A stretch of DNA of 64,000 nt from Bacillota bacterium. GTDB taxonomy: Bacteria > Sysuimicrobiota > Sysuimicrobiia > Sysuimicrobiales > Segetimicrobiaceae. The notes beneath the pieces were generated by a model, which was not told where the DNA came from, did no database searches, and was given only the letters and a program-made list of their open reading frames with translations. A program made the position numbers and the translations under genes. Positions 5,445 to 23,939 of the stretch are shown piece by piece. Every line of letters begins with the position of its first letter. Position 1 is the first letter of the stretch. The stretch spans positions 26,422 to 90,421 of the forward strand of contig JAJPJL010000128.1 of NCBI GenBank assembly GCA_021324255.1. The letters run 5' to 3'.

Positions 5445-7049
5445 ATGCCGCTGCCCCAGACCCCCGATGACGCGCAGGAAGCGCCGGCGGTGAGTACTCG
5501 ACGCCGGCGCCGTCTGACGCGCTGGCTCGTAGCATCCGCCCTTGCGGCGATCCTGGCGCTCGCCGCGCCGCCGCCCCGGATGGAGCCGCTCGCCTCGGCG
5601 GCGGGCGCTCCGGCGCCCGCGGGCGCGCTCGCCGCGCCCCACCCGGCCGTCACCACCCACTCGATCACGGTCAGGGACACGGTCGTACGGTACACCGCCA
5701 CCGCGGGCGAGGAGCCGTTGACGGACCGCGCGGGCAAGCCCGAGGCCGCCGTCTTCTTCGTCGCCTACGTGAGGCAGGACGCCGCGGACCCCTCGAGGCG
5801 TCCGATCACGTTTGCCTTCAACGGCGGGCCCGGCGCGGCGTCCGTGCTGCTGCACCTCGGCGCGCTCGGGCCCAAGCGGGTGCCGTTGCTGGACCACGGC
5901 GTGCCGCCCACCCCGTCGACCCGCTGGAGCGACAACCCGTACACGTGGCTCACGTTTACGGACCTGGTCTTCGTCGACGCGGTAGGAACGGGGTACAGCC
6001 GCGCGGCGGCTGGCGTGCCGGACTCCACGTTCTTCCAGCCCGACGGCGACGCCCGGTCGTTCGCGCAATTCATTCAGCGGTACATCGCCGAAACGCACCG
6101 GCAAGCGTCGCCCGTGTTTCTCGCGGGCGAGAGCTACGGCGGGACGCGCGCGATCCTCCTCGCGCGGCTCCTGCACGACGCGGGCATCGACGTCAGCGGG
6201 CTGATCCTGATCTCGCCGGTCGTGGATTTCGCAACGCTGAACTCCCAGTACCGCAACCCGGGCCGGAGCATGGATCTGGCGTACGCCCTCGACGTGCCGA
6301 CGTATGCCGCGACCGCCTGGTACCACAAGAAGCTCGGCCCGGAGTTTCCGGATCTCGCCGCCGCCGTGCACGCGGCCGAGCGCTGGGCGGTGACCGAGTA
6401 TCTGCCCGCTCTGGTTCAGGGCGACGCGCTCCCGGCGCCGGCGCAGGAGCGGATCGCCCAGGCGCTGTCGCAATACACCGGCATCGGCGAGGCGGTGCTC
6501 CGCGCGCAACGCCTCCGCCTGCTCCCGACCGCGTTCAGGCGGGAATTGCTGTCCGATCAGCACCTCCAAATCAGCGCGTTGGACGGACGGATCGCCGTTG
6601 ATCCGCGCGCCGCTCACGCCGCGAGCACGACCGGGCTCATGACGCCGCTCGCGGCGATCTTCGAGCGGTACGCAAGCACGGAACTGGGTTACGCACGCCC
6701 AGATCGATACCAGGCCCTGTCCGAGCGGGTCGAGCGCGATTGGACGTGGGGCGTCCGCGGGCCGGCTGATGTCCTCGACGTCACGGGAGATCTGCGCGAC
6801 GCGATGCAGCAGAACCCGGCGATGAAAGTGCTCGTCGCGCTGGGCTACTTCGACCTCACGGTCCCGTACTACGGCACGGAATACGCGCTCAACCGGCTCG
6901 CGCTCGCGCCGGCGCTGGCGGACAATGTGATCCGCCGGTACTACGAGAGCGGGCACATGCTGTACACATCACAGGCGTCGCTGGAGAAGTTTACGGGCGA
7001 CGCGGCGGCCCTGATCGCGAGCGCGACCGCGCCGGCGCACCATCCGTAG
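5445..7049 (+). CDS. S10-family serine carboxypeptidase-like protein (secreted/membrane-anchored)
   Basis: The ATG at 5445 follows GGAG. An N-terminal RRRRLTRWLVASALAAILALAAPPP signal/anchor is present. The GESYGG nucleophile motif and a C-terminal YYESGHMLY His motif are typical of peptidase S10. Confidence 0.75.
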   Translation: MPLPQTPDDAQEAPAVSTRRRRRLTRWLVASALAAILALAAPPPRMEPLASAAGAPAPAGALAAPHPAVTTHSITVRDTVVRYTATAGEEPLTDRAGKPEAAVFFVAYVRQDAADPSRRPITFAFNGGPGAASVLLHLGALGPKRVPLLDHGVPPTPSTRWSDNPYTWLTFTDLVFVDAVGTGYSRAAAGVPDSTFFQPDGDARSFAQFIQRYIAETHRQASPVFLAGESYGGTRAILLARLLHDAGIDVSGLILISPVVDFATLNSQYRNPGRSMDLAYALDVPTYAATAWYHKKLGPEFPDLAAAVHAAERWAVTEYLPALVQGDALPAPAQERIAQALSQYTGIGEAVLRAQRLRLLPTAFRRELLSDQHLQISALDGRIAVDPRAAHAASTTGLMTPLAAIFERYASTELGYARPDRYQALSERVERDWTWGVRGPADVLDVTGDLRDAMQQNPAMKVLVALGYFDLTVPYYGTEYALNRLALAPALADNVIRRYYESGHMLYTSQASLEKFTGDAAALIASATAPAHHP

Positions 7050-13330: not shown

Positions 13331-14527
13331 TCATCCGCTCCCGCCGTCCTCGGCGGCGAGCGGCCGGCCGCCGATCACGGTCAGGACCGGGACGAGACGG
13401 CGGCGCGCGTGCATGGTCCGACCGGTGACATCCATGAATGAAAACGTACCGGCGCGGTCATCCAGCACCGTGACGTCCGCGGGCGCGCCCGCACGCAGCG
13501 TGCCGAGGTCCGGCCGCCCGATCGCCCGGGCCGGCGCCACGGTCGCGGCGGCGATGACCCGGTCGAGCGGCATGCCGAGCACGAGCAGCTTCGACATCGT
13601 CGTCGGCAGATCGTACGCCGGGCCGTCAATGCACAATGCGTGGACGTCGCTGCTGATCACGTCCGGCAGGAAGCCCGCGGCGAGACACGCCTCGGCGCTC
13701 TCGAAGGAAAAGCTGCCCATCCCGTGGCCGATGTCGATGACGACGCCCCGCGAACGCGCATCCCACAGTTCCGGCAGCACCCGGCCGGTGACGCCCGGAT
13801 CCACCGTCGGCCCGTTGGGGAACGGCCGGAACGCGTGGGTCAAGATGTCGCCCGGGCGCAGGAGCGGAAGCACCTCGCGCCGGGTCGGCGGCGGCATATC
13901 GGTGTGTACCATCAGGCGCGCGCCGAGGGCCTCAGCCGCCGCGAGCGCGAGGTGCAGCGGCGCGATGCCCCGGCCCTCGCCGGCGATCAGGCCGAGGCGC
14001 ACCTTGATCCCCAGCACGAGGTCGCCGTGCTCGCGGGCCGCGCGGACGGCCTCGCCCACATGCAGCAGGCGCAGGTCGACCGATTCTCCCACCATGAGCT
14101 GGCGCGAAAACGCGAAGATACCGGCGTAGCTGATGTTGAGGAAGGGCAGCACGCGAACCCGCGCGCGCTCGATCAGATGCCGGCGAAATCCCCGAATGTT
14201 GCCGGCGCCCGCGCTCCCGGCATCGACAAACGTCGTCACGCCCGCGCGCGCGCTGAGCGCGTCGGGATCGATGCCCAGCGAGGTACCGCCCCAGTACACG
14301 TGCGCGTGGAGGTCGATCAGCCCGGGGGTGACGAGCTTGCCCGACACGTCGATGACGCGCGCGGCTTCCTCCCGCGGCAACGCGGGCCCCACCGCCGCGA
14401 CGCGGCCGTCCGCGATGGCGACGTCCGCGACCGCGTGCAGGCGCTGAGACGGATCCAGCACCGTGCCGTTCGCGAGCACGAGATCGTATGGCGGCACCGC
14501 ATCACCTCCAATTGGCGCGCGACCCAT
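13331..14527 (-). CDS. metal-dependent amidohydrolase family protein
   Basis: The HxH metal motif sits in GLIDLHAHVYWGG. The N-terminal beta-sandwich lead (YDLVLANGTVLDP) and the later motifs DMPPPTR and VIDIGHG match the amidohydrolase superfamily. Confidence 0.75.
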   Translation of the reverse strand: MGRAPIGGDAVPPYDLVLANGTVLDPSQRLHAVADVAIADGRVAAVGPALPREEAARVIDVSGKLVTPGLIDLHAHVYWGGTSLGIDPDALSARAGVTTFVDAGSAGAGNIRGFRRHLIERARVRVLPFLNISYAGIFAFSRQLMVGESVDLRLLHVGEAVRAAREHGDLVLGIKVRLGLIAGEGRGIAPLHLALAAAEALGARLMVHTDMPPPTRREVLPLLRPGDILTHAFRPFPNGPTVDPGVTGRVLPELWDARSRGVVIDIGHGMGSFSFESAEACLAAGFLPDVISSDVHALCIDGPAYDLPTTMSKLLVLGMPLDRVIAAATVAPARAIGRPDLGTLRAGAPADVTVLDDRAGTFSFMDVTGRTMHARRRLVPVLTVIGGRPLAAEDGGSG

Positions 14528-14593: not shown

Positions 14594-15643
14594 TTAGGGA
14601 GACGGCGCCGGAGCCGGCGCGAAAGAACGCTCGACGATCTGATCGGGATTGCCCAACCGCCCCAGCGGTCGCCCATCCACGGCGACGGCCACGGCGCCGG
14701 CGTTGGTCGTGCTCAGGATGACTTCCCGCCGGCCGGCCCACACCCGCCGCTCGCCCGGCGCCAGCACTCCGTCGTAGACCGCGCGCCCGTCAACGATCGC
14801 GCGGACCCACGCCTGCGCGCTGGCGGCGATCTCCACGCGCACGGACTGCGCGGCCCCGGGCCGCACGCTCGGCGGCGGGGCGGCGGTGGCTCCAGGCGGC
14901 GCCGGCGATGCCTGGGAGACCGGCGAGCCCGATGTCGAGGCCGGGGCGGGGGCAGCTCCGGGAGTCGCGCGCGCAGGCGGCGAAGCCAGGGTGACAGGCG
15001 CGGGAGGAGCCGGCATCGCCTGCTGGGCGCTTGGACTGACCGGCGATCCCTGACCGGCGGCCGGCGGCCGCACGACTGCCCCGGTCACCGGCGCGGCCTG
15101 GCTGGTCGGGGCGGGCGCGCCCTGGGCCCCCGTCCCGGGCGCCGCGGTCGCCGGAGTGGCCACGCGCGGCGAGGGCGGCGACGCGGCCCCGGCGTCCGCA
15201 GCGCCGGCGGCGGCGGACGTCGCGGGGCGCGCGGACCTGGCGGCGCCGTGCGGGCGTTCCAGGCCGTGATAGACGAGATACGCGGCGGCTACGGCGGCCA
15301 CAAGCGCAACCGGCGCCACGAGCCGGCTCGCCGGCCGGCGAGCCGGCGATGCCACGCGCGTCTCCGGGTAAACCGACGCCGGCGGCGGCTCGCCCTCCCC
15401 GGCAAAGGCCCGGGCCGCTACGAGCTCCTGAATGAGCTCGTCCGGGGACAGTCCGAGATAGGTGGCGTAGTTGCGAAGGAATCCCTTGGCGTACACCGGG
15501 CCGGGAAGGTCGCCAAACCGGTCGCTCTCGAGGGCGTCGAGGTGGCGCTCCGGAATACGCGTGTTCGCGGCGACCGCTTGCAGGGACCATCCGAGCGCCT
15601 GCCGCGCCCGGCGCAATCGCTCACCGACGCCGATCGCGTCCAT
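14594..15643 (-). CDS. rodZ: RodZ-like cytoskeleton protein (XRE HTH + TM + Pro/Ala-rich linker + C-terminal DUF4115-like domain)
   Basis: The N-terminal HTH reads GVGERLRRARQALGWSLQAVAANTRIPERHLDALE. A TM helix (LVAPVALVAAVAAAYLVY) follows. The C-terminus reads VRVEIAASAQAWVRAIVDGRAVYDGVLAPGERRVWAGRREVILSTTNAGAVAVAVDGRPLG. An alternative GTG start lies at 15652. Confidence 0.75.
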   Translation of the reverse strand: MDAIGVGERLRRARQALGWSLQAVAANTRIPERHLDALESDRFGDLPGPVYAKGFLRNYATYLGLSPDELIQELVAARAFAGEGEPPPASVYPETRVASPARRPASRLVAPVALVAAVAAAYLVYHGLERPHGAARSARPATSAAAGAADAGAASPPSPRVATPATAAPGTGAQGAPAPTSQAAPVTGAVVRPPAAGQGSPVSPSAQQAMPAPPAPVTLASPPARATPGAAPAPASTSGSPVSQASPAPPGATAAPPPSVRPGAAQSVRVEIAASAQAWVRAIVDGRAVYDGVLAPGERRVWAGRREVILSTTNAGAVAVAVDGRPLGRLGNPDQIVERSFAPAPAPSP

Positions 15644-15834
15644 GATGACCACCGTCGATTGGAGCGGCCACTGTGTACCGCTATCCTAAGCGACGGCGAC
15701 GGGCCGAGCAAGAGGCTCGAGGCCGCGCCGGAGCGCGGGTCCGCGGTGCGGCCCGGTACCCGTCCGAACGGCAGGCCCGGAGGCAGACCGCGGCCGCGGC
15801 GCGTTCCCCGGGACCCGCGGCGCTGCCGCCGCGC

Positions 15835-16266
15835 GTGGCGCTGCTGCTTCGACGAGCCCGCGTGGCCCGGCTGGCCACCGCCGATCCGCGCGGGCAGCCA
15901 TACGCGGTGCCCGTGTGCTTTGCGTTCGACGGCGGGAGCATCGTGAGCGTCATCGACGCCAAGCCCAAGCGCCTCGCCCCACGCCGTCTACGCCGGATCC
16001 GCAATATCGCCCTGAACCCCCGGGTGGCGCTGCTTGTCGACGCCTACCATGAGACGTGGACGAGGCTGTGGTACGTGCTCGTGCTGGGGCGGGCCGAGCT
16101 CGTCGAGCCGGGCACACCGCGCCACGCTCCGGCAATCCGGCTCCTGCGTCGCAAGTACCGCCAGTACCGCACCATGCCGCTGGACGAGGCTCTCGTGATC
16201 GATATCGTCCCGCAGCGCGTGGCGGCATGGTTTGCCCGCAGACCGGCGCGCGCTCGACCGCGATAG
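15835..16266 (+). CDS. pyridoxamine 5'-phosphate oxidase (PPOX) family, probable F420-dependent enzyme
   Basis: The protein reads LLLRRARVARLATADPRGQPYAVPVCFAFDGGSIVSVIDAKPK...RIRNIALNPRVALLVDAYHETWTRLWYVLVLGRAELVEPG. The listed ORF begins with a GTG at 15673, but the first 54 codons are Arg/Ala low-complexity. The GTG at 15835 gives a typical 143-aa protein. Confidence 0.6.
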   Translation: MALLLRRARVARLATADPRGQPYAVPVCFAFDGGSIVSVIDAKPKRLAPRRLRRIRNIALNPRVALLVDAYHETWTRLWYVLVLGRAELVEPGTPRHAPAIRLLRRKYRQYRTMPLDEALVIDIVPQRVAAWFARRPARARPR

Positions 16267-16344
16267 TCGCGGCGGCGTGCTCCGCGCGTACGTGGCCCGG
16301 CTCGACGACTGGCACGAACAACGCGGGGACGTTCGCCGCTCCGA

Positions 16345-16623
16345 CTAGGCGCCGTCCCTGCCGCGGTGCTGCGCGGCGCGGGCCGCCGGAGCCGGACGAA
16401 CGACATCCCGGATCGACGCGGCGGCGGACAGCTCCGGCAGCAAACAGCACGACGCGACGGCGCAGGGAACGGGCGAGCCGGTCTCCGGCGCCAACACCCC
16501 GGGGATCCCGGGCAGCGGCAACGGCTGCGGGTCCAGCTGGCACGACCCCGCGATCGGAGCCGCCGGCAACGCCAGCGCGGCGCCGATTGTCAAGATGGCG
16601 AGCACGATCATGGTGTGGTGCAT
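16345..16623 (-). CDS. small secreted Cys-containing protein (92 aa precursor)
   Basis: RBS GAGAAAGGGGACCG precedes the ATG. The signal peptide reads MHHTMIVLAILTIGAALALPAAPIAG. The mature part carries 4 Cys (SCQLDPQPLPLPGIPGVLAPETGSPVPCAVASCC). Confidence 0.5.
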   Translation of the reverse strand: MHHTMIVLAILTIGAALALPAAPIAGSCQLDPQPLPLPGIPGVLAPETGSPVPCAVASCCLLPELSAAASIRDVVRPAPAARAAQHRGRDGA

Positions 16624-16667
16624 CGGTCCCCTTTCTCCGCCCGAAGGCGCGCCGCCCCAAAAAGACC

Positions 16668-16702
16668 GAGCGGCCGGACCGGGACATCCCGGTCCGGCCG
16701 CC
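16668..16702 (-). terminator. intrinsic terminator after peptide gene A
   Basis: The perfect hairpin CCGGACCGGGA-cat-TCCCGGTCCGG is followed on the minus strand by CTTTTTGGGG. Confidence 0.5.
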
Positions 16703-16718
16703 GGCGGCGACGAATCGG

Positions 16719-16931
16719 TTACTGGTTCTGCTGCAGGTAGACCGGCGTGTTGTCGCCCGTGTTCAGCTGTGGCGCTTGGTCGGTGTTGCCCGTGGTCACC
16801 ATGGTCGTCGCCACGTCCGGCGTCGACACGGCGCCGGCCGGATACCCTTGTCCATTCTCGTCCGCGAGAGCGGCGGCAGGGGCCAGGGCCATCGCCGCAC
16901 CCAGGGTGAGCAGTGCCAGAACTCGACGCAT
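16719..16931 (-). CDS. small secreted peptide precursor, paralog A (70 aa)
   Basis: RBS GAGGAGGCAACGATC precedes the ATG. The signal peptide reads MRRVLALLTLGAAMALAPAAALA. The mature peptide reads DENGQGYPAGAVSTPDVATTMVTTGNTDQAPQLNTGDNTPVYLQQNQ, with no Cys. Confidence 0.6.
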   Translation of the reverse strand: MRRVLALLTLGAAMALAPAAALADENGQGYPAGAVSTPDVATTMVTTGNTDQAPQLNTGDNTPVYLQQNQ

Positions 16932-16988
16932 GATCGTTGCCTCCTCTACGTTCGGTCGCTCGATTTTGTGGGCTCGTGTTGCGAGCCG

Positions 16989-17213
16989 TTACTGGTTGTT
17001 CTGCAGGTACACCGGCGTCTGCTGATCCGCCGGTGCCCCGTCGGACGGTCCGAGCTGCTGCGCGCCCGCACCGCTGCCCGACCCGATCTCGACGGCGGCG
17101 CTCGACGTCGTGCCCGTGAACGGAGACGAATGCCCGTTCTCATCCGCCATCGCCGCGGCCGGCGTCAGCGCCGCTGCCGCTCCGAGTACAACCATTGCCA
17201 GAAGTCGACGCAT
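16989..17213 (-). CDS. small secreted peptide precursor, paralog B (74 aa)
   Basis: RBS AAGGAGGACACCTTCG precedes the ATG. The signal peptide reads MRRLLAMVVLGAAAALTPAAAMA. The mature peptide reads DENGHSSPFTGTTSSAAVEIGSGSGAGAQQLGPSDGAPADQQTPVYLQNNQ. It shares the signal peptide, the DENG N-terminus and the TPVYLQxNQ C-terminus with paralog A, with a divergent core. Confidence 0.6.
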   Translation of the reverse strand: MRRLLAMVVLGAAAALTPAAAMADENGHSSPFTGTTSSAAVEIGSGSGAGAQQLGPSDGAPADQQTPVYLQNNQ

Positions 17214-17317
17214 CGAAGGTGTCCTCCTTTCTCGATCCTTTCAGATCTAGGGTCTGATTCTTCTTTGGTACAAGCCGCTTACTATTCACAACCAGACGAT
17301 ACCATGGAGACTTCTTA

Positions 17318-17352
17318 TTGTCAAGACACTTCCCTTCTGTTAGTATGTAACA
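17318..17352 (+). promoter_or_regulatory. sigma70-like promoter for HxlR gene overlapping a face-to-face -35 for the divergent peptide operon; short inverted repeat over the -10
   Basis: On the + strand: TTGTCA, a 17-nt spacer, then TAGTAT. On the - strand: TTGACA (reverse complement of 17319-17324), a 17-nt spacer, then TATCGT. The inverted repeat TGTTA-n5-TAACA spans the + strand -10. The element lies in an AT-rich 175-bp spacer. Confidence 0.45.
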
Positions 17353-17388
17353 GGTAGGCAAAGAAAAATATTCCGAGGAGAAACCGCG

Positions 17389-17727
17389 ATGGACGACGGG
17401 ACGCACATCTGCCCAAAGTTCCACCGCGCCATCGAGTTGATCGGCAAGCGGTGGACGGGCGCCATCATCTGGGCGCTGCTGGACGGGCCGCAACGATTCT
17501 CGGGGCTCCTGGACGTCATTCCCGGCCTGCATGACCGGGTGCTGTCGGAGCGCTTGAAGGAGATGGAAGCCGAGGGCATCGTACGGCGCCAGGTCTATGC
17601 CGAGACGCCGGTCAGGATCGAATATGCCCTCACCGACAAGGGACGGGACCTGCAACGGGTCGTGGCGGAGATGAAGCGGTGGGCGGACCGCTGGCTCCGC
17701 CCGGCCGCGCGCGCCGCGAGAAACTAA
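17389..17727 (+). CDS. HxlR-family winged-helix transcriptional regulator
   Basis: The protein reads CPKFHRAIELIGKRWTGAIIWALLDGPQRFSGLLDVIPGLHDRVLSERLKEMEAEGIVRRQVYAETPVRIEYALTDKGRDL. RBS GAGGAG is present. Confidence 0.85.
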   Translation: MDDGTHICPKFHRAIELIGKRWTGAIIWALLDGPQRFSGLLDVIPGLHDRVLSERLKEMEAEGIVRRQVYAETPVRIEYALTDKGRDLQRVVAEMKRWADRWLRPAARAARN

Positions 17728-17754: not shown

Positions 17755-18198
17755 TTAGGGGAGCGGGCGCGCGTAGCCGCCGGTGTCCGCGGCCTCATCG
17801 GGCACGCGCGCCGGAGGGGCGGCGTCCGGGGTGCGCCGCTCGGTCATCGAGCGCACGGCGTCGTCGACGTCCGGAAAGATGTCGAACACCTCGTGGAGCG
17901 ACAGCGCGGAGAAGACCTCGCGCATCGCCTGCGACGTAAAGACCAGCGCCAGATCGACATCCATGATACGGCACCGGTCCCGGATCCCCATGAGCACGTT
18001 CAACGCCGTGCTATCGAGGTACGTCACGCGCGACAGATCGATCACGAGCGGCAGGCGATCGCGCAACGCCTGAGTGAGGACGTCCTGCGGGACGTAGATA
18101 TTGCTGACGTCGATTTCGCCCTGCACGCGCACCAGGTTGACGTGCTCCAGCCGGACCATCTGGCACCACAGCGACTCAGCGCGGCGATCCGTCACCAT
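17755..18198 (-). CDS. STAS-domain protein (anti-sigma-factor antagonist SpoIIAA-like)
   Basis: The ATG at 18198 follows GGGAGGGGCGCC. The STAS core reads VRVQGEIDVSNIYVPQDVLTQALRDRLPLVIDLSRVTYLDSTALNVLMGIRDRCRIMDVDLALVFTSQAMREVF. The candidate phospho-Ser context is DST. Confidence 0.75.
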   Translation of the reverse strand: MVTDRRAESLWCQMVRLEHVNLVRVQGEIDVSNIYVPQDVLTQALRDRLPLVIDLSRVTYLDSTALNVLMGIRDRCRIMDVDLALVFTSQAMREVFSALSLHEVFDIFPDVDDAVRSMTERRTPDAAPPARVPDEAADTGGYARPLP

Positions 18199-18300
18199 GG
18201 CGCCCCTCCCGGATGCGGCGAAATCCTGCTTCAATGATGCGCCGCGGTTGCGGCAAAATCAACCGGGCCGTACCCTCGAGGGTCCCGGGACGGGCGCGGC

Positions 18301-19041
18301 TCATCCGGCGGCGGCGGGCCCGCGCGCGCGCCCGAACGCGACGCGGGCGAACGTCGCGGTGATGCGCACGCTCGCCGCGAGCGTGCCGCGCAGCGTGCCC
18401 GATACCTTGGACCTCCCGCCCGCGCGGCGGCGGTGGTCCACCGGCACCTCCAGGATGCGGAGCCCCAACGCCGCCGCGCGCATCTGCATCTCGAGGTTCC
18501 AGCCGTACGTCGGCTCCCGCATCCCGAGCCGCTCCAACGCGCCGCGGCGAATGGCGCGGAACGGGCACATGTCGCTGTAGCGCACGCCGTACCGCAGGCG
18601 CACGAGGATGCCGGCGAGGCGCGCCGCGAGCACCTGCGAGCGGCCCATGCTCCCGGCCTCCCGGCGGCCGCGAAGGCGCGAGCCGATGACGAAATCCTGG
18701 TCCCCCGCGAGGATCGGCGCCACGAGCCGGTCCATGAGTTCGGGGCGGTCGCTGCCGTCGCCGTCGAGAAACACGATGACGGCGCACCGCGGGTCCACGG
18801 CGCGGACACCCGCGGCGCAGGCCCGGCCGTAGCCGCGCTGCCGCTCACGCACGACCCGCGCCCCGGCCGTTCGCGCCTGCTCGGCCGTGGCGTCGTCGCT
18901 CCCGTTGTCCACCACGATCACCTCGTCGGCGATCCCCCGCGGGACCGCCCCGACAACCCGCGCGATGGTGTCGGCCTCGTTCAGCGCGGGAATGACCACG
19001 GACACCCAGGCGCCGTGACGCTCCGCCCGCGGACCCGTCAT
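18301..19041 (-). CDS. family 2 glycosyltransferase (Dpm1-like), 'transferase 2, rSAM/selenodomain-associated' type
   Basis: This is the C-terminal 246 codons of the listed 1044-aa ORF. The protein reads VSVVIPALNEADTIARVV...VIVVDNGSDDATAEQAR...FLDGDGSD (DxD). Its start overlaps the epimerase stop by 4 nt. Confidence 0.8.
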   Translation of the reverse strand: MTGPRAERHGAWVSVVIPALNEADTIARVVGAVPRGIADEVIVVDNGSDDATAEQARTAGARVVRERQRGYGRACAAGVRAVDPRCAVIVFLDGDGSDRPELMDRLVAPILAGDQDFVIGSRLRGRREAGSMGRSQVLAARLAGILVRLRYGVRYSDMCPFRAIRRGALERLGMREPTYGWNLEMQMRAAALGLRILEVPVDHRRRAGGRSKVSGTLRGTLAASVRITATFARVAFGRARGPAAAG

Positions 19042-20213
19042 GCGTCGCCCGTGGAGACCGGATCCGCGCGGCCGGGCCCGGCCCCGGCCACACGGTGCAC
19101 GATCCCCTTGGCGCCGAGGATCGCCTCGGCCGCGGCGAAGTAGTCGCGCACGTCGGCCTGCCGCCGGACCCATGCCAGATACCGCTCGAGGCCGGCGGGG
19201 AGACCGGTGCGCGGGGTAAAGCCCGCGGCGCGAGCCCGCGAGATGTCCGCGGTGAGGTGCCGGATCTCGCCCGGGCGGAACTCCCCGCGCAGGACCGGCG
19301 GGATCCGGCGGCCGAGCGCGCCGGCGAGCGCCTCGTAGAGGTCGTGGATGGCGGTCGCCGTCCCGCTGCCGACGTTGACCGGCACCCCGTCCCACGCCGA
19401 GGTCGTGGCGGCGAGCAGGTTGGCCTCGGCGATATCCTCCACGAAACAAAAGTCGCGCGTCTGCGCGCCGTCCTCGTAGATCACGGCGGGACGGCCGTTG
19501 AGCAGGCGCGTGCAGAAGATCGCGATGACCCCGGTGTACGGGTTGAACAGCGACTGCCGGGGCCCGTAGGTGCACGAGTACCGCAGGGCGACCGCGGGGA
19601 TGCCGGTCTGCTCGGCCCACGACAGGACGAGGCGTTCCTGCGCCACCTTGCTGATGGCATAGGGGGTCGCGCCGCACAACGGCGCGTCCTCGCCCGTCGG
19701 CACCGAGACCGTCCGCCCGCGGCAGCGCGGACAGTGGACCGTGAAGTCGCCGGCCCGCAACTGCGCCACCGGCCGCACCGGGGGATAGACCGTCCCATGC
19801 ACCGGGCAGGCGACCGCGCCCTCGGCGTACACCACCTGGGAGGACGCCACGATGACCTTGCGGACCGGCAACCGTTCGTCCCGGATCAGCTCCAAAAGCA
19901 GCGCCGTGCCGACGACGTTGACGTCGGCGTACTTCGCGATCTCCGGCATGAACCCGCCGTACGCCGCCTGGTGAAACACCACGTCGATGTCGCGGAGCGC
20001 CGCCAGCACGAGCGCGCGGTCCCGGATGTCTCCCTCCACGAACTCGGCGGCATCCGGCACCCACGCGGGCCGGCCGTGCCGGTGGGTCTGCGGCTCGAGA
20101 CGATCGAGGACGCGAACGCGCCACCCGTCTTGCAGCAGCCGGTCGACGATGTGCGACCCGATCAACCCCGCGCCGCCCGTGACGAGCGCGCGCCGCCCCA
20201 CCCGTTCCCCCAT
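19038..20213 (-). CDS. NAD-dependent epimerase/dehydratase (extended SDR)
   Basis: The Rossmann motif VTGGAGLIGSHIV is present. The catalytic YxxxK reads TPYAISK. Confidence 0.85.
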   Translation of the reverse strand: MGERVGRRALVTGGAGLIGSHIVDRLLQDGWRVRVLDRLEPQTHRHGRPAWVPDAAEFVEGDIRDRALVLAALRDIDVVFHQAAYGGFMPEIAKYADVNVVGTALLLELIRDERLPVRKVIVASSQVVYAEGAVACPVHGTVYPPVRPVAQLRAGDFTVHCPRCRGRTVSVPTGEDAPLCGATPYAISKVAQERLVLSWAEQTGIPAVALRYSCTYGPRQSLFNPYTGVIAIFCTRLLNGRPAVIYEDGAQTRDFCFVEDIAEANLLAATTSAWDGVPVNVGSGTATAIHDLYEALAGALGRRIPPVLRGEFRPGEIRHLTADISRARAAGFTPRTGLPAGLERYLAWVRRQADVRDYFAAAEAILGAKGIVHRVAGAGPGRADPVSTGDA

Positions 20214-21617
20214 TCACGTCTCCCTTCGAAGCACCGGCGATCCCGGGCGCCGGCGGTGTGCGGCCCGCAGCGCGCCGCGCCGCAGGCGCCCCCGGATCTC
20301 CGCCCCGAATCGCTCCGCGAGCGCCAAGCCCGCCGTCGGGCCATAGAGCGCGATATCGAACGCCAGCATCTCGTCGTTGATGCCGAACCACGGCCGGTAC
20401 CACAACGCCGAGAAGAGCCACAGGGCTGCGCCGGTCATGTAGAGGAGCGCGATCCGCGGCGTGAAACAGGCGAGCGCCACGAGCCATCCGAAGTACCAGA
20501 GGTAGTGCGTCGACAGGAGCACGAGGAACGCGGCGGCGACCGTGGCGCCGTAGCCGAGGTCGCCGAGCGCCGTCCGGCGCTCGGTGCGCCAGACACGATA
20601 CGCGAGCAGGAACAGCATGAGCAGCGCCGCGCCGGCATACGCCGCGACGGGCGCGGCCACGCCTGCCAGCCGGGCCAGCGTCAGGCCGAGGAACCGGTCG
20701 CCGGTGACGATGCCTTCCTCCGCGGCGTAGCCCGGCAGAAACCCGATCACCCCGGTCCCGACGCCGAGATACGGCAGATACCCGGCCGCGACGGTCGCCG
20801 CCAGCGCCGCCGGCATCTTCCATGTGCCGCGCCGGTAAAATGCGAGCACGAGGAGGGCGGGATACAGTTTCACCAGCGTGGCGCAGCCGAGCGCGATACC
20901 GGTGAGGCTCTCCCGGCGGCGCAGGTGCGCCAGCACCGCCACGAGGATGAAGGTGATCGCCGCGGCGTCGATGTGACCGTCCCCCGCGTACTGCCACAGG
21001 ACCAACGGATGCCAGGCGTACAGCAAGACGCGCTCCCGCGGCAGGCCGGCCAGGCCGAGCGTGAGGCACAACAGCCACACGGTCCCGCCCTCGAACGCGA
21101 CCACCGCCGCCTTCATCGCCGTCACCGTCTGGCTGACCCGCGTCACCGCGAGGAAGATCGCCTGCGCCGCCGGCGGGTAGATCGTGTGCGCGTAGTCCCG
21201 CCGGCTGACGTGCGGGTAGATCGCCGCGTCGCGCAGCCCGGCGAGCGCCGGATCCGCCGGCACGTACCGGTATGGATTGACGCCGGCGCCCTGCACGCGC
21301 CCGTCCCAAATGTACCGGTAGATGTCCGCGGAAAACTTCGGCGGGCTCAGAACAAGCGGGATGCGGCACAGGAGCGCGACGAGCAGGATCACGGTGAGGC
21401 CGCCTCTGGCGACCCGCCCGGTGAGGACCATCCACGCCGCGCCGCCGAACAACAGCGTCTGTGCGAGCGCCAGGGTCCGCACGGCGAAGATATCGGGGAT
21501 GTGCGCGCGCTCGCCGTAGACGTACGACGCCACCGTGAGCGCGCCGAGACCCGCGAGCACCGCGGTCCCGGCGGCCGGCCGCACCCCGTTACCGCGGAAG
21601 GCCGGCGCGATCGCCAC
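20214..21617 (-). CDS. polytopic membrane glycosyltransferase-like protein (DUF2029/GT87-like, GT-C fold candidate)
   Basis: There are about 11 predicted TM helices and an Arg-rich cytoplasmic tail. The stop abuts the epimerase start. The GTG start at 21617 overlaps the upstream gene by 29 nt; an alternative GTG lies at 21584. Confidence 0.55.
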   Translation of the reverse strand: MAIAPAFRGNGVRPAAGTAVLAGLGALTVASYVYGERAHIPDIFAVRTLALAQTLLFGGAAWMVLTGRVARGGLTVILLVALLCRIPLVLSPPKFSADIYRYIWDGRVQGAGVNPYRYVPADPALAGLRDAAIYPHVSRRDYAHTIYPPAAQAIFLAVTRVSQTVTAMKAAVVAFEGGTVWLLCLTLGLAGLPRERVLLYAWHPLVLWQYAGDGHIDAAAITFILVAVLAHLRRRESLTGIALGCATLVKLYPALLVLAFYRRGTWKMPAALAATVAAGYLPYLGVGTGVIGFLPGYAAEEGIVTGDRFLGLTLARLAGVAAPVAAYAGAALLMLFLLAYRVWRTERRTALGDLGYGATVAAAFLVLLSTHYLWYFGWLVALACFTPRIALLYMTGAALWLFSALWYRPWFGINDEMLAFDIALYGPTAGLALAERFGAEIRGRLRRGALRAAHRRRPGSPVLRRET

Positions 21618-22404
21618 GACGCTCGCCGGTCACGGATGGCGGCGCCCAGATGCGTTCCCGCGCGTGCGCGAGCAGCTGCGAGAGATACCGGCGGGTGTGG
21701 GGTGCCGGAGATCCCCGGCCCCCGTGCCCGTCGAAGCACTCCCGGCACAGGCGGCGCAGGCTCGGCGCATCGTCGACGTCATACCACCTCGGCAGGACCT
21801 CGACCCGCACGCCGGCCTCGGCGGCGCGCGCGAGCGTTTGCGCGAATACGGCCTCCGTCCCCCACGCGATGCCGGCAAACAGCCGCGGGTCCGGCGCCGT
21901 CATGCCGATCAGGTAGTAGCCGCCGTCGTCCGCGGGACCGATGACCACGCAGTCGGGATCGCGCGCCAGCAGCCCCGCCGCTTCCGTGAACACCGCCGGG
22001 GACAGGGTCGGGCTGTCGGAGCCGACCAGGCAAAGGGCGGCGTACCCGGCGTCCCGCAAGTCCGCCGCCGCGCCATACAATCGCTCGCCGAGCGTGCCGC
22101 CGCGCTGGAGAACCCGATGGAACTCGGGGGGCACGAGCGCGTCGAATACCGCCTCGCTCCCGGCCGGTGTGTACACCACCGCCCCCTCGCATGCCCCGGC
22201 GGCGCACGCCGCCGTGATGGCGGCTGCGGTATCGCGAAGAAAGCACGCGTGGAGCGCGGCGGCCTCGGCCGGCGATAGCGGCGGCGTCAGTCGGGTCTTG
22301 ACGCGCCCGGGGAGCGGCGCTTTGGTCATGATCCCGATCGCACACCGGCCGGGGTGGGACGACCCCGGGCGACCCGCGGGGCGGCGCCGCATGCCGCTTG
22401 TCAT
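21589..22404 (-). CDS. DUF2064 / CofC-MobA-like nucleotidyltransferase-fold protein ('transferase 1, rSAM/selenodomain-associated' type)
   Basis: The conserved N-terminus reads AIGIMTKAPLPGRVKTRL, followed later by LVGSDSPTLSP and DDGGYYLIG. The start ATG overlaps the cupin stop (ATGA). Confidence 0.75.
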   Translation of the reverse strand: MTSGMRRRPAGRPGSSHPGRCAIGIMTKAPLPGRVKTRLTPPLSPAEAAALHACFLRDTAAAITAACAAGACEGAVVYTPAGSEAVFDALVPPEFHRVLQRGGTLGERLYGAAADLRDAGYAALCLVGSDSPTLSPAVFTEAAGLLARDPDCVVIGPADDGGYYLIGMTAPDPRLFAGIAWGTEAVFAQTLARAAEAGVRVEVLPRWYDVDDAPSLRRLCRECFDGHGGRGSPAPHTRRYLSQLLAHARERIWAPPSVTGERRGDRAGLPR

Positions 22405-22817
22405 TTGACCACGGTCGTCTCGTCGGCGCCCTTGGGAATCAACTCGGCCGCCGAGATGCGGGCGGGGCTCGCGCTCCGGTTGATGAGGGCGTGCACGTCC
22501 CCGGGCACCTCGAGGAAGCTCTCGCCGGTCTTGATGACGCGTTCGCCGCCGCCGCGCTGCAGCACGAGCTGGCCGGACACGACGGTCACCACCACGGGGC
22601 CGCCGTGCACGTGCCGCGGCGTCGCGCTGCCGGGCGGGAAATCCACGACGAAGTCGTAGAGATCGTAGTCGCCGGCCGTCACGGACACGGGGAACGCGGC
22701 CACGGTCACCGTCCGGGGCGACGCGCCCGGAGCGGCGGCCCGCACGGTCTCGATCACGGAACCGGCGAGCAACGCGCCCAGCGCCGCCGCCAGCACATAC
22801 CATCGCCGGACTGGCAT
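22401..22817 (-). CDS. secreted cupin-domain protein
   Basis: A signal peptide (MPVRRWYVLAAALGALLAGSVIETVRA) is present. The cupin motifs read PGSATPRHVHGGPVVVTVVSGQL and GESFLEVPGDVHAL. Confidence 0.65.
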   Translation of the reverse strand: MPVRRWYVLAAALGALLAGSVIETVRAAAPGASPRTVTVAAFPVSVTAGDYDLYDFVVDFPPGSATPRHVHGGPVVVTVVSGQLVLQRGGGERVIKTGESFLEVPGDVHALINRSASPARISAAELIPKGADETTVVK

Positions 22818-22874
22818 CTCGCTCCTCCTCTCGCACGTCCCGCGCGTTGCCGTGCGGCCGGGCGCGGCCGGCGC

Positions 22875-23939
22875 TTAGCGGGCGCCCTCGCGGGCCATCA
22901 CGACCGTCGTGCAGGAACTGCTCAGCTTCGGCAGGTCGCGCGCGCCGGCGGATCGCACCGCGAGCCGTATCCGGTCGCCGCGCACGATCGGGCAGTACAT
23001 GTCGGGGGCATCCAGCGCACCCTGCAACCGCCGGCGCCCGGCGCACCCGCCGTGACAGGCCGCGCGGTGCTCGCACGCTTGACAGGCCTCGGGGAGCGCG
23101 CGCGCCTGTGCGAACGGCTCGGTGTTCACGATGTCGCGCCCCAGGCGCAGGCCCTCGCGGAGCGGCTCGCCGGGCCCCGGCCAGTAGACGCACGGCTGTG
23201 TCGTGCCGCGCGGGGTGACCCGCACCGTGCTCACGCCGCATCCGCCCGCCGGCGCCGGGAGCCCGGCCATGGCGCGCACCAACGGCTCGCCGATCGCGAT
23301 GACGTCCGTCTCCGCAAACAGCGCCCGAAACCCGTCCCAGTACTCCTCGTACGTCAGCGCATACGCGTCGGAGCGCACGGCTTGGTACACATTCACCCGC
23401 AGGGGCGCACGGAACTTGGCGGCGACGCGCGCCACCTCCGCGAGGCGGCGATAGTTGGACTTCATCATCACCGCGACGATGGTCACGGGCACGCCGGCGC
23501 GCACGCAGCGCGCCGCCTGCTCGTGGATCAGGGCCCAGTTGCCGGCGCCCCGCTGCGCGTCCTGTTCGTCCGCCGTCGGATAATCGAGCGAGAACTCGAC
23601 GTCGTGAAAGGCGCGCAGCTCCGCGTCCGAGAGCACGGCCACGCTGTAGCCGTTTGAGGTGATCGTCAGTTTGACCGGCTGAGCGCGCAGGTACGCGAGG
23701 ATGGCCCTGAAGTCGGGGTGCAGCCCGTTCTCGCCCGTGCCCAAGTTGACCGACTGTACGGGGAGCCGCGCCATCACGGCCCGGACCTGATCCAGCGTGA
23801 GCCGGTCCACGCGCGCCGGATCCCGGTAGCAGAATGCGCACGCCAAGTTGCACTCGTTCGTCAGGCCGAGTCCCAGCGCCACCCCGGGCGGGGCCGTGCG
23901 CGCCTCCGATGCCGGCGCGGGGGCGCGGGTGTCGGACAT
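22875..23939 (-). CDS. radical SAM enzyme with Cys-rich C-terminal (SPASM/selenodomain-like) domain
   Basis: The ATG at 23939 follows GGAGG. The radical SAM cluster motif CNLACAFC (CxxxCxxC) is present. The C-terminal Cys cluster reads CQACEHRAACHGGCAG...MYCP. There is no in-frame TGA, and the gene ends with TAA. Confidence 0.75.
   Translation of the reverse strand: MSDTRAPAPASEARTAPPGVALGLGLTNECNLACAFCYRDPARVDRLTLDQVRAVMARLPVQSVNLGTGENGLHPDFRAILAYLRAQPVKLTITSNGYSVAVLSDAELRAFHDVEFSLDYPTADEQDAQRGAGNWALIHEQAARCVRAGVPVTIVAVMMKSNYRRLAEVARVAAKFRAPLRVNVYQAVRSDAYALTYEEYWDGFRALFAETDVIAIGEPLVRAMAGLPAPAGGCGVSTVRVTPRGTTQPCVYWPGPGEPLREGLRLGRDIVNTEPFAQARALPEACQACEHRAACHGGCAGRRRLQGALDAPDMYCPIVRGDRIRLAVRSAGARDLPKLSSSCTTVVMAREGAR

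Follow-up and report, generated by a model that had tools for sequence, protein, structure and literature searches.

A lineage-restricted operon of small exported proteins beside a YodB-like regulator, and its possible place in a thiol-stress cassette

The locus considered here raises the question of why tandem genes for small secreted-type proteins should lie beside a divergently transcribed regulator of the HxlR family, and what these proteins may be doing there. It is part of a 64,000-nucleotide stretch of DNA (hereafter the window) from a Bacillota bacterium of the GTDB family Segetimicrobiaceae (contig JAJPJL010000128.1, positions 26,422 to 90,421), and it comprises the paralogous genes pepA and pepB, a third small gene, pepC, and the regulator gene hxlR (Table 1). 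A first-pass annotation of the same DNA had read the tandem pair as diversifying signalling or bacteriocin-like peptides, or as substrates of a modification enzyme. Our comparative analyses led to a different explanation, to which we would give about an even chance of being correct: pepA-pepB(-pepC) is a lineage-restricted operon of small exported proteins that occupies the target slot of a YodB-like thiol-stress regulator cassette. The peptides are thus probably a stress-switched secreted output, and not bacteriocins or fast-diversifying signals. What would be new is the swap of cargo inside a conserved YodB-type cassette, the regulator being an ordinary member of a known family.

Regulators of the YodB/QsrR/HypR type are textbook switches for the detoxification of quinones and disulfide stress in the cytoplasm. 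The product of hxlR matches the Pfam family PF01638 with 106.5 bits (cut-off 20.8, E=6.4e-31), and its best match in the PDB is YodB of B. subtilis (5hs7, E=5.9e-30, about 50% identical). The sole Cys of the window HxlR, Cys8 in the context ICPKF, aligns with the sensor Cys6 of YodB (MCPKM) and is kept in all eight aligned relatives; an N-terminal sensor Cys in a CP(K/R/L) context is also a likeness to CatR, QsrR and HypR, the MarR-DUF24 (that is, HxlR) family. Quinones S-alkylate and diamide oxidises Cys6 of YodB, whereupon the repressor leaves the DNA (PMC8063818), and YodB, CatR and HypR all sense quinones, diamide and NaOCl through this residue (PMC8063818, PMC3351151). Unlike YodB, which also possesses the C-terminal Cys101/108, the window HxlR has no second Cys, with one in its 112 aa. 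A YodB-type intersubunit disulfide is therefore impossible in this protein; S-alkylation or S-thiolation of Cys8 would still be possible.

The genes that accompany the relatives of this regulator place the peptide operon. Among 1,266 HxlR homologues, the closest others (65-78% identical in local BLASTP alignments and 65-68% in a full-length alignment) are found in L018, L019 and L021, where they are divergent from yceI, with a glyoxalase-fold gene next in two of the three, and in L024, where the regulator is divergent from doxX (our comparison loci are numbered with L; L001 is the metagenome-assembled genome, MAG, GCA_035295165.1, L007, which is the same as L009, is Bacillota bacterium Centralia_MAG_233, and L008 is an Armatimonadota bacterium). 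Such sister cassettes, with yceI, glyoxalase-fold and doxX genes, carry typical quinone/thiol-stress cargo, which is a further likeness to the YodB/CatR/QsrR/HypR systems. Because these closest homologues sit beside yceI-glyoxalase or doxX genes with the same conserved intergenic block and promoter geometry as in the window, the peptide operon occupies the target slot of the cassette. No yceI, doxX or glyoxalase gene was found in the 64-kb window. YodB and CatR control an azoreductase, a nitroreductase and a dioxygenase, whereas the cargo here consists of three small exported peptides and not of cytoplasmic reductases or dioxygenases. A literature search on HxlR together with DoxX/YceI, or together with small secreted proteins, returned nothing relevant. 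As side observations, the yceI of the HxlR-linked cassettes is without a signal peptide, and the glyoxalase-fold gene next to it in L019 and L021/L022 is of the two-domain type. Several of the loci L018-L025 bear the NCBI label Armatimonadota bacterium, which makes the placement of the group as a whole uncertain.

The link between HxlR and the peptides is itself recurrent, being present in four lineages with differing flanks: the window, L007, L001 and the pair L023+L010. The last of these was recognised by joining two contigs, since the end of L023 (1-94) is identical to the start of L010; the HxlR of L023 is 83% identical to that of the window. The divergent HxlR regulator described in the first-pass annotation was thus borne out both by its family match and by this linkage. 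Peptide-linked HxlR proteins carry DRV and EM(K/Q)RWA, those linked to yceI or doxX carry DRL and EV..., and in a neighbour-joining tree three of the four peptide-linked proteins cluster, with that of L001 branching at the base.

As in the YodB/CatR/QsrR/HypR systems, the regulator is divergent from its presumed target across a conserved, AT-rich operator/promoter region. Two promoter-like sites were found between hxlR and pepA, vs 0.1 expected, and they are two back-to-back extended -10 promoters, near consensus, whose -35 regions overlap on opposite strands. The shared -35 (17311-17330) is nearly palindromic, reading CTTGACAA on one strand and TTGTCAAG on the other, and the yceI- and doxX-linked cassettes have a perfect 9-bp palindrome, CTTGACAAG, at the same place. 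An equivalent promoter pair is carried by L001, and the peptide-side promoter by L010. When the intergenic regions are anchored on TTGACA, the block CTAACAnAAnnGAAGnnnCTTGACAAnAnGAAG is common to the peptide-, yceI- and doxX-linked regions. A search pattern drawn from the block, CTAWCA-N6-AAG-N3-CTTGACAA, occurs in exactly one copy in each of the 16 loci with HxlR or its promoter and in none of the remaining nine (0/9); it is present as a single copy in the 64-kb window, and it sits in the HxlR-target intergenic region wherever a locus holds both genes. In addition, the peptide-linked cassettes possess an extra inverted repeat, CTGTTA-N5-TAACAG (17337-17353), that overlaps the -10 of hxlR. From this conservation we infer that HxlR binds the block at 17311-17353. 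The operator proposed here differs from the HypR box (GTATCAAAATTGATAC, PMC3351151).

According to our favoured explanation, a dimer of the single-Cys HxlR would bind the block over the shared -35 and thereby govern the peptide operon as well as hxlR itself, and quinones, other electrophiles or oxidants would alkylate or oxidise Cys8, alter DNA binding and switch the operon on. Since the block lies over both -35 elements, we favour derepression, as in YodB and QsrR; the alternative is activation of the HypR type from the upstream palindrome, HypR being an activator that works from a site upstream of its target and probably also a repressor of its own gene (PMC3351151). The precursors would then be exported by Sec and cut after A-x-A, and the freed acidic, Cys-free, disordered peptides of 47-51 aa would act outside the cytoplasm through short linear motifs, namely the N-terminal D(D/E)N-x-QG and the C-terminal P-aromatic-aromatic-L-Q with its polar tail, with the Pro-rich pepC product acting alongside the A and B peptides. 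Transcription of pepC would depend on read-through of the hairpin behind pepB, which would lower pepC relative to pepA and pepB. From the sequence comparisons described here we infer the control exerted by HxlR, the nature of the inducer, the point of cleavage and a stress-related role of the peptides in the envelope or outside the cell. If this explanation is true, the reach of YodB-type sensors extends to the extracytoplasmic space, and an orphan small-protein family of uncultured soil bacteria gains a regulatory context and an induction condition. A further-reaching version, rather improbable in our judgement, is that in an uncultured soil lineage a thiol/quinone sensor has been rewired to trigger, in place of cytoplasmic detoxification enzymes, the export of motif-bearing peptides that serve as an extracellular alarm or community signal, or as anionic, disordered envelope protectants or ligand binders acting via P-aromatic-aromatic-L-Q and pepC.

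Several observations weigh against the cassette explanation. The known targets of YodB, QsrR and HypR are cytoplasmic enzymes and not secreted peptides, and the A and B peptides have neither Cys nor Lys, the usual quinone nucleophiles, so that direct scavenging is unlikely. Distant members of the peptide family, in L011, L012, L015 and L017, come without the HxlR cassette, and the peptides can therefore work without HxlR. The operator is defined by conservation only; the spacing of the inverted repeat in L010 is N3 and not N5, and its left half-site is missing from the yceI and doxX cassettes. Furthermore, the conserved block is also the promoter of hxlR itself, and thus its conservation alone is no proof of control over the peptide genes. 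An explanation in which the HxlR adjacency is positional only, with the block serving as the hxlR promoter and the peptide genes being constitutive or under another regulator, would account for the overlap of the block with the -35 and -10 of hxlR and for the distant family members that lack the regulator. However, the HxlR-peptide arrangement is kept in four lineages although both outer flanks have changed, the peptide and hxlR promoters share a -35, such that occupancy of one affects the other, and the homologous cassettes hold classic quinone/thiol-stress genes in the equivalent slot. We therefore regard a purely positional adjacency as unlikely, with a small probability that should still be kept in mind.

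Table 1. Features of the peptide-HxlR locus (positions are those of the window)
Feature	Positions	Strand	Description
pepC	16345-16623	minus	92-aa exported-type Pro-rich protein, signal peptide, 4 Cys
Hairpin between pepB and pepC (putative intrinsic terminator/attenuator)	16660..16702	minus	15-bp GC stem (16702-16669) and T run
pepB	16719-16931	minus	70-aa precursor, B-type; core motifs STPDV and PQLNT; end TPVYLQQNQ
pepA	16989-17213	minus	74-aa precursor, A-type; core motif GAQQLxPSDGxPA; end TPVYLQNNQ
Peptide-operon promoter	17296..17324	minus	TTGACA, 17-nt spacer, TATCGT, extended -10 TG
AT-rich operator/promoter block (putative)	17311..17353	minus	CTAACAnAAnnGAAGnnnCTTGACAAnAnGAAG, preceded by inverted repeat CTGTTA-N5-TAACAG
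hxlR promoter	17318..17346	plus	TTGTCA, 17-nt spacer, TAGTAT; -10 within palindrome
hxlR (HxlR/DUF24-family winged-helix regulator gene)	17389-17727	plus	112 aa, divergent from pepA-pepB-pepC
STAS gene	17755-18234	minus	behind hxlR, convergent with hxlR

The three peptide genes are genuine genes, beyond chance open reading frames (ORFs), because the GC content at third codon positions (GC3) reveals a coding frame (GC by codon position 0.70/0.51/0.80 in pepB; GC3 0.79 in pepA and 0.91 in pepC), the ratio of nonsynonymous to synonymous substitution rates (dN/dS) lies between 0.18 and 0.42 for pepA and pepB, and the module recurs elsewhere. Compared with the nearest relative, L007, dN/dS is 0.42 for pepA, 0.18 for pepB and 0.16 for hxlR, and pepA and pepB are under purifying selection. 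A 433-aa ORF antisense to all three genes (16056-17357, plus strand) has flat codon-position GC (0.72/0.67/0.65) and was rejected as a high-GC artefact. Both pepA and pepB possess a strong Shine-Dalgarno sequence (AGGAGG/GGAGG) with the ATG 8-9 nt further on, while that of pepC is weaker (AAGGGG). The two proteins are 47% identical (36/76, E=3e-9), with identity restricted to the signal peptide (MRRxLAxxxLGAAxALxPAAAxA), DENG, QL and the end TPVYLQ(Q/N)NQ. At the DNA level, identity amounts to 67-73% over the first 90 nt, falls to 27-47% in alignment columns 91-180 and rises again to 63-87% at the 3' end. On these points the earlier reading of a tandem paralogous pair with strong Shine-Dalgarno sequences and with nucleotide identity confined to the ends was confirmed. 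No further ORF ending in TPVYLQ was found in the 64-kb window.

The hairpin separating pepB from pepC has a fold energy of -42.1 kcal/mol (z=-6.35), and comparable hairpins stand behind the final A/B-type gene of L001, L010 and L011, making four lineages with the window; the earlier statement that a third small secreted protein follows behind a terminator thus also held. Rfam searches of the whole window and a permissive RNA search of 16200-17500 returned nothing except terminator look-alikes. A riboswitch or leader in the 5' untranslated region was considered and dropped, as this region is not conserved between the window and L007.

Whether the peptides are diversifying depends on the age of the duplication. 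The L001 module consists of HxlR (68% identical to that of the window), a 74-aa peptide, a 69-aa peptide and a 74-aa Pro-rich peptide, with both outer flanks entirely unlike those of the window. Its first peptide (5685-5909) is an A-type orthologue (GAQQLDPSDGVPA...PVYLQNNQ) and its second a B-type orthologue (STPDV...PQLNT...PVYLQQNQ); orthologues of pepA are found in L001 and L007/L009, and peptide orthologues also in L010. Because A and B each have an orthologue, core included, in a lineage whose HxlR is 68% identical, the A/B duplication is old and predates the split between the window and L001, each core being conserved inside its own type. The core that the first-pass annotation called hypervariable is therefore variable between the paralogues A and B but conserved between orthologues, and its description of the pair as diversifying does not agree with the orthologous cores in L001 or with the dN/dS values of 0.18-0.42. 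A pattern of conserved ends and a variable middle in tandem small genes can mean old, subfunctionalised paralogues and not ongoing diversification. The tandem peptide genes of L010 (156-672) are 74% identical to each other, vs 47% in the window, and thus duplication or gene conversion has recurred.

Both precursors begin with a signal peptide of 23 aa, ending in AMA before DENG in pepA and in ALA before DENG in pepB, which leaves predicted mature parts of 51 and 47 aa, respectively, both anionic. The signal peptides were read from the sequence and the cleavage sites placed by the -3/-1 rule; the n-region is positively charged, the hydrophobic h-region spans about 15 residues and the residues at -3/-1 are small. 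The layout MRR, then (V/L)LA(L/M)xxLGAAxAL, then PAAA(L/M)A before D, with n-, h- and c-regions and A-x-A, is kept throughout the family. L001 has MRQ and MQR in place of the twin Arg, and export by the twin-arginine (Tat) route was accordingly rejected; a lipoprotein signal is excluded for pepA and pepB, which lack Cys. The n-h-c layout with A-x-A, together with the lack of a conserved twin Arg and of any Cys, makes export by Sec with cleavage by signal peptidase I likely. After the signal, which ends in A(M/L)A, the family signature comprises the mature start D(D/E)N-x-QG, a spacer rich in S/T/G/N, the C-terminal motif P-(V/A/W)-(Y/W)-(L/V)-Q and a polar tail of Q/N/G/E of variable length. 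The tails differ in both length and sequence, with NNQ, QNQQSQ, HEPEQNR and HQQGG among them.

Across the family, the predicted mature peptides are 33-53 aa long, with a net charge of -3 to -7, 0-2 Lys/Arg and no Cys; S/T/G/N/Q/P make up 52-67% of the residues, the grand average of hydropathy (GRAVY) is -0.4 to -1.35 and the pI is about 4. An AlphaFold2 model of pepB, built with the family alignment, has a mean predicted local distance difference test (pLDDT) score of 55, and no structure is predicted besides the signal helix and one helical turn at VYLQ. The A and B peptides are thus predicted to be anionic, disordered chains with short conserved linear motifs, and motifs in such a chain would argue for docking to a partner, not for catalysis or membrane attack. 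These properties bear directly on the suggestion that the peptides are bacteriocins or other antimicrobials. Their genes are indeed small, of secreted type and present as tandem duplicates. However, the products are strongly anionic, hydrophilic, Cys-free and predicted to be disordered; there is no double-glycine leader, no ATP-binding cassette (ABC)/C39 exporter, C39 protease or immunity gene is conserved nearby, and the genes are under purifying selection. The surroundings of the module in the window and in L001 have no transporter, immunity gene or maturase in common. We thus consider an antimicrobial role most unlikely, and this part of the first-pass annotation was abandoned.

A role as signals of the Phr/PapR type deserves more weight. 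Here the precursors would be exported by Sec, a C-terminal segment such as PVYLQxNQ would be released by extracellular proteolysis, and the fragment would be sensed after re-import or at the cell surface, coupling stress to cell-cell signalling. Phr, PapR and NprX of the RRNPP systems likewise have short precursors that unite a Sec signal, a weakly conserved middle or spacer and a conserved C-terminal segment, and occur in tandem copies; tandem duplicates recur in the present family, and an Opp-type ABC importer (SBP_bac_5, OppB/C-like) lies immediately downstream of the L001 module. In contrast to those systems, however, no receptor of the RRNPP/TPR or histidine-kinase type is conserved beside the module, no TPR/RRNPP receptor gene was found in any gene context examined, and the regulator next door is a winged helix-turn-helix redox sensor, HxlR proteins being without a peptide-binding domain. 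The Opp genes adjoin the module only in L001, the extreme C-terminus after the motif varies in length and sequence, and the motif is kept across deep lineages with no pherotype diversification and with dN/dS below 1. Taken together, these points make a signalling role improbable, but not negligibly so.

The third gene, pepC, widens the comparison. Its relatives stand at the equivalent position in L007, L001 and L011 and have the motif PxP(V/L)P(V/L)PxxPxxL(V/A)P(D/E) in common, and the four Cys of the window protein are not conserved beyond close relatives. By sequence inspection, its AGS before Cys is compatible both with a lipobox and with a signal peptidase I site. In L008, a single uninterrupted ORF (139-594) contains two signal-peptide units, the first of which has an N-terminus of pepA/B type (AAAMADDNWQG) and a core of pepC type (PVPVPVQPVNPVPDD); this hybrid suggests that pepA/B and pepC are mosaic relatives. 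The gene next after the hybrid ORF encodes a PAS-GAF-HisKA_3 histidine kinase. In L011 (189-1245), the small peptide P0008 ends in PPWWLQHQQGG; behind its gene come a hairpin, the gene of a secreted, Pro-rich protein similar to pepC and, after that, one for an AhpC/TSA peroxiredoxin (E=2.7e-29). The HxlR operator block was not seen upstream of these peptide genes, on what is a short contig, and the peroxiredoxin next to the peptide-pepC pair may be taken as a single extra redox hint.

The constant presence of pepC also bears on the idea that the peptides are components of the envelope or matrix, in which Q/N/S/T/G-rich disordered chains would assemble, for example by way of the aromatic and Q/N-rich C-terminus, or would dock or become cross-linked to polymers of the wall or to pepC. 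Their composition, the conserved aromatic-Leu-Gln and the Q/N tail would fit, the exported Pro-rich pepC is a constant partner, and the strong Shine-Dalgarno sequences, with a promoter close to consensus, point to high expression. On the other side, the argument is one of composition only: the peptides are not homologous to curli, chaplins, TasA or further known matrix proteins, the module has no conserved sortase, transglutaminase or assembly gene near it, and control by a stress regulator would be atypical for matrix genes. We consider this explanation distinctly unlikely.

Searches for further relatives agree with the earlier remark that the peptides belong to no recognised family. When the single peptides and the family profile were searched against Pfam, NCBIfam and the sequences of the PDB, nothing rose above noise, and the sub-threshold matches, to YbgS, Asr and Rv1678_C, were matches of composition only. 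Asr and YbgS resemble the peptides in that a signal peptide precedes a mature part that is disordered and of low complexity, and stress-responsive expression would be expected in both cases. However, the scores are far under the cut-offs (YbgS, E=0.055, 14.1 bits vs 27; Asr, E=0.096, 13.5 bits vs 50) and reflect signal peptide and composition, not homology; the model name of Asr, moreover, speaks of a repetitive basic protein, whereas the peptides here are acidic with almost no Lys/Arg.

In a word-indexed search of 5.8 billion proteins, pepB retrieved itself and one 63%-identical protein (P0002), and pepA itself alone. When 185,579 species genomes, together with JGI metagenomes, were scanned with the patterns PVYLQ[NQ]NQ and signal/ADDN, only L007, L008 and L009 were found among the matches listed, L007 (= L009) being a close relative and L008 a fragment. 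The family profile, run against all 1.84 billion representative proteins, gave 14 hits. Besides the queries, these included six convincing clusters of small peptides (P0004-P0008 and P0012) and three doubtful members (P0011, P0014 and P0015) with little in common except the signal peptide. The hits P0009 and P0013 were rejected as spurious, as they are FG-GAP/VCBS-like repeat proteins in which the match is confined to ALADxNGDG, and a third long hit, P0010, is a protein of 1736 aa with three matched stretches. By these searches, the peptide family is very rare and lineage-restricted. Its sources, where seen, are soil metagenomes and MAGs, and the NCBI labels of the carrier MAGs are Bacillota bacterium, bacterium and Armatimonadota bacterium.

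The wider neighbourhood of the locus differs from that in L001. The STAS gene, which had been described as lying downstream, is not downstream of the peptides; it lies behind hxlR and is missing from the L001 module. Beyond it, a minus-strand cluster (18301-23939) encodes a radical SAM/SPASM protein, a cupin, a TIGR04282-family glycosyltransferase (179 bits), a GT87/MptA-like transferase, an SDR epimerase/dehydratase and a GT2 protein; this cluster was not found beside the L001 peptide module. The radical SAM protein (22875-23939) matches SPASM above the cut-off, and its best sub-threshold match is to a mycofactocin maturase.

This gene, on the same strand and 5.7 kb from the peptides, is what might support the remaining proposal, namely that the peptides are substrates of a maturase, as in ribosomally synthesised and post-translationally modified peptides (RiPPs), with the C-terminal aromatic-x-Gln as the site modified or recognised by a radical SAM/SPASM enzyme; the aromatic-X-Q motif presumably resembles cyclophane-type sites. 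Yet the radical SAM gene is part of a glycosyltransferase/epimerase cluster, STAS and hxlR intervene between it and the peptides, the 6 kb around the L001 module contain no such gene, and the precursors have Sec signals, not RiPP leaders, and no Cys. With the enzyme present only in the window's lineage and none conserved beside the module, the earlier suggestion of a modification-enzyme substrate now seems very unlikely.

On the pepC side, no PPOX-class oxidoreductase, RodZ-like protein or amidohydrolase is conserved beside the L001 module. In the window, the neighbours on this side are an F420-dependent PPOX-class oxidoreductase (15673-16266, plus strand; TIGR03668, 156 bits), a RodZ-like protein (14594-15652, minus strand) and an amidohydrolase (13331-14527, minus strand).

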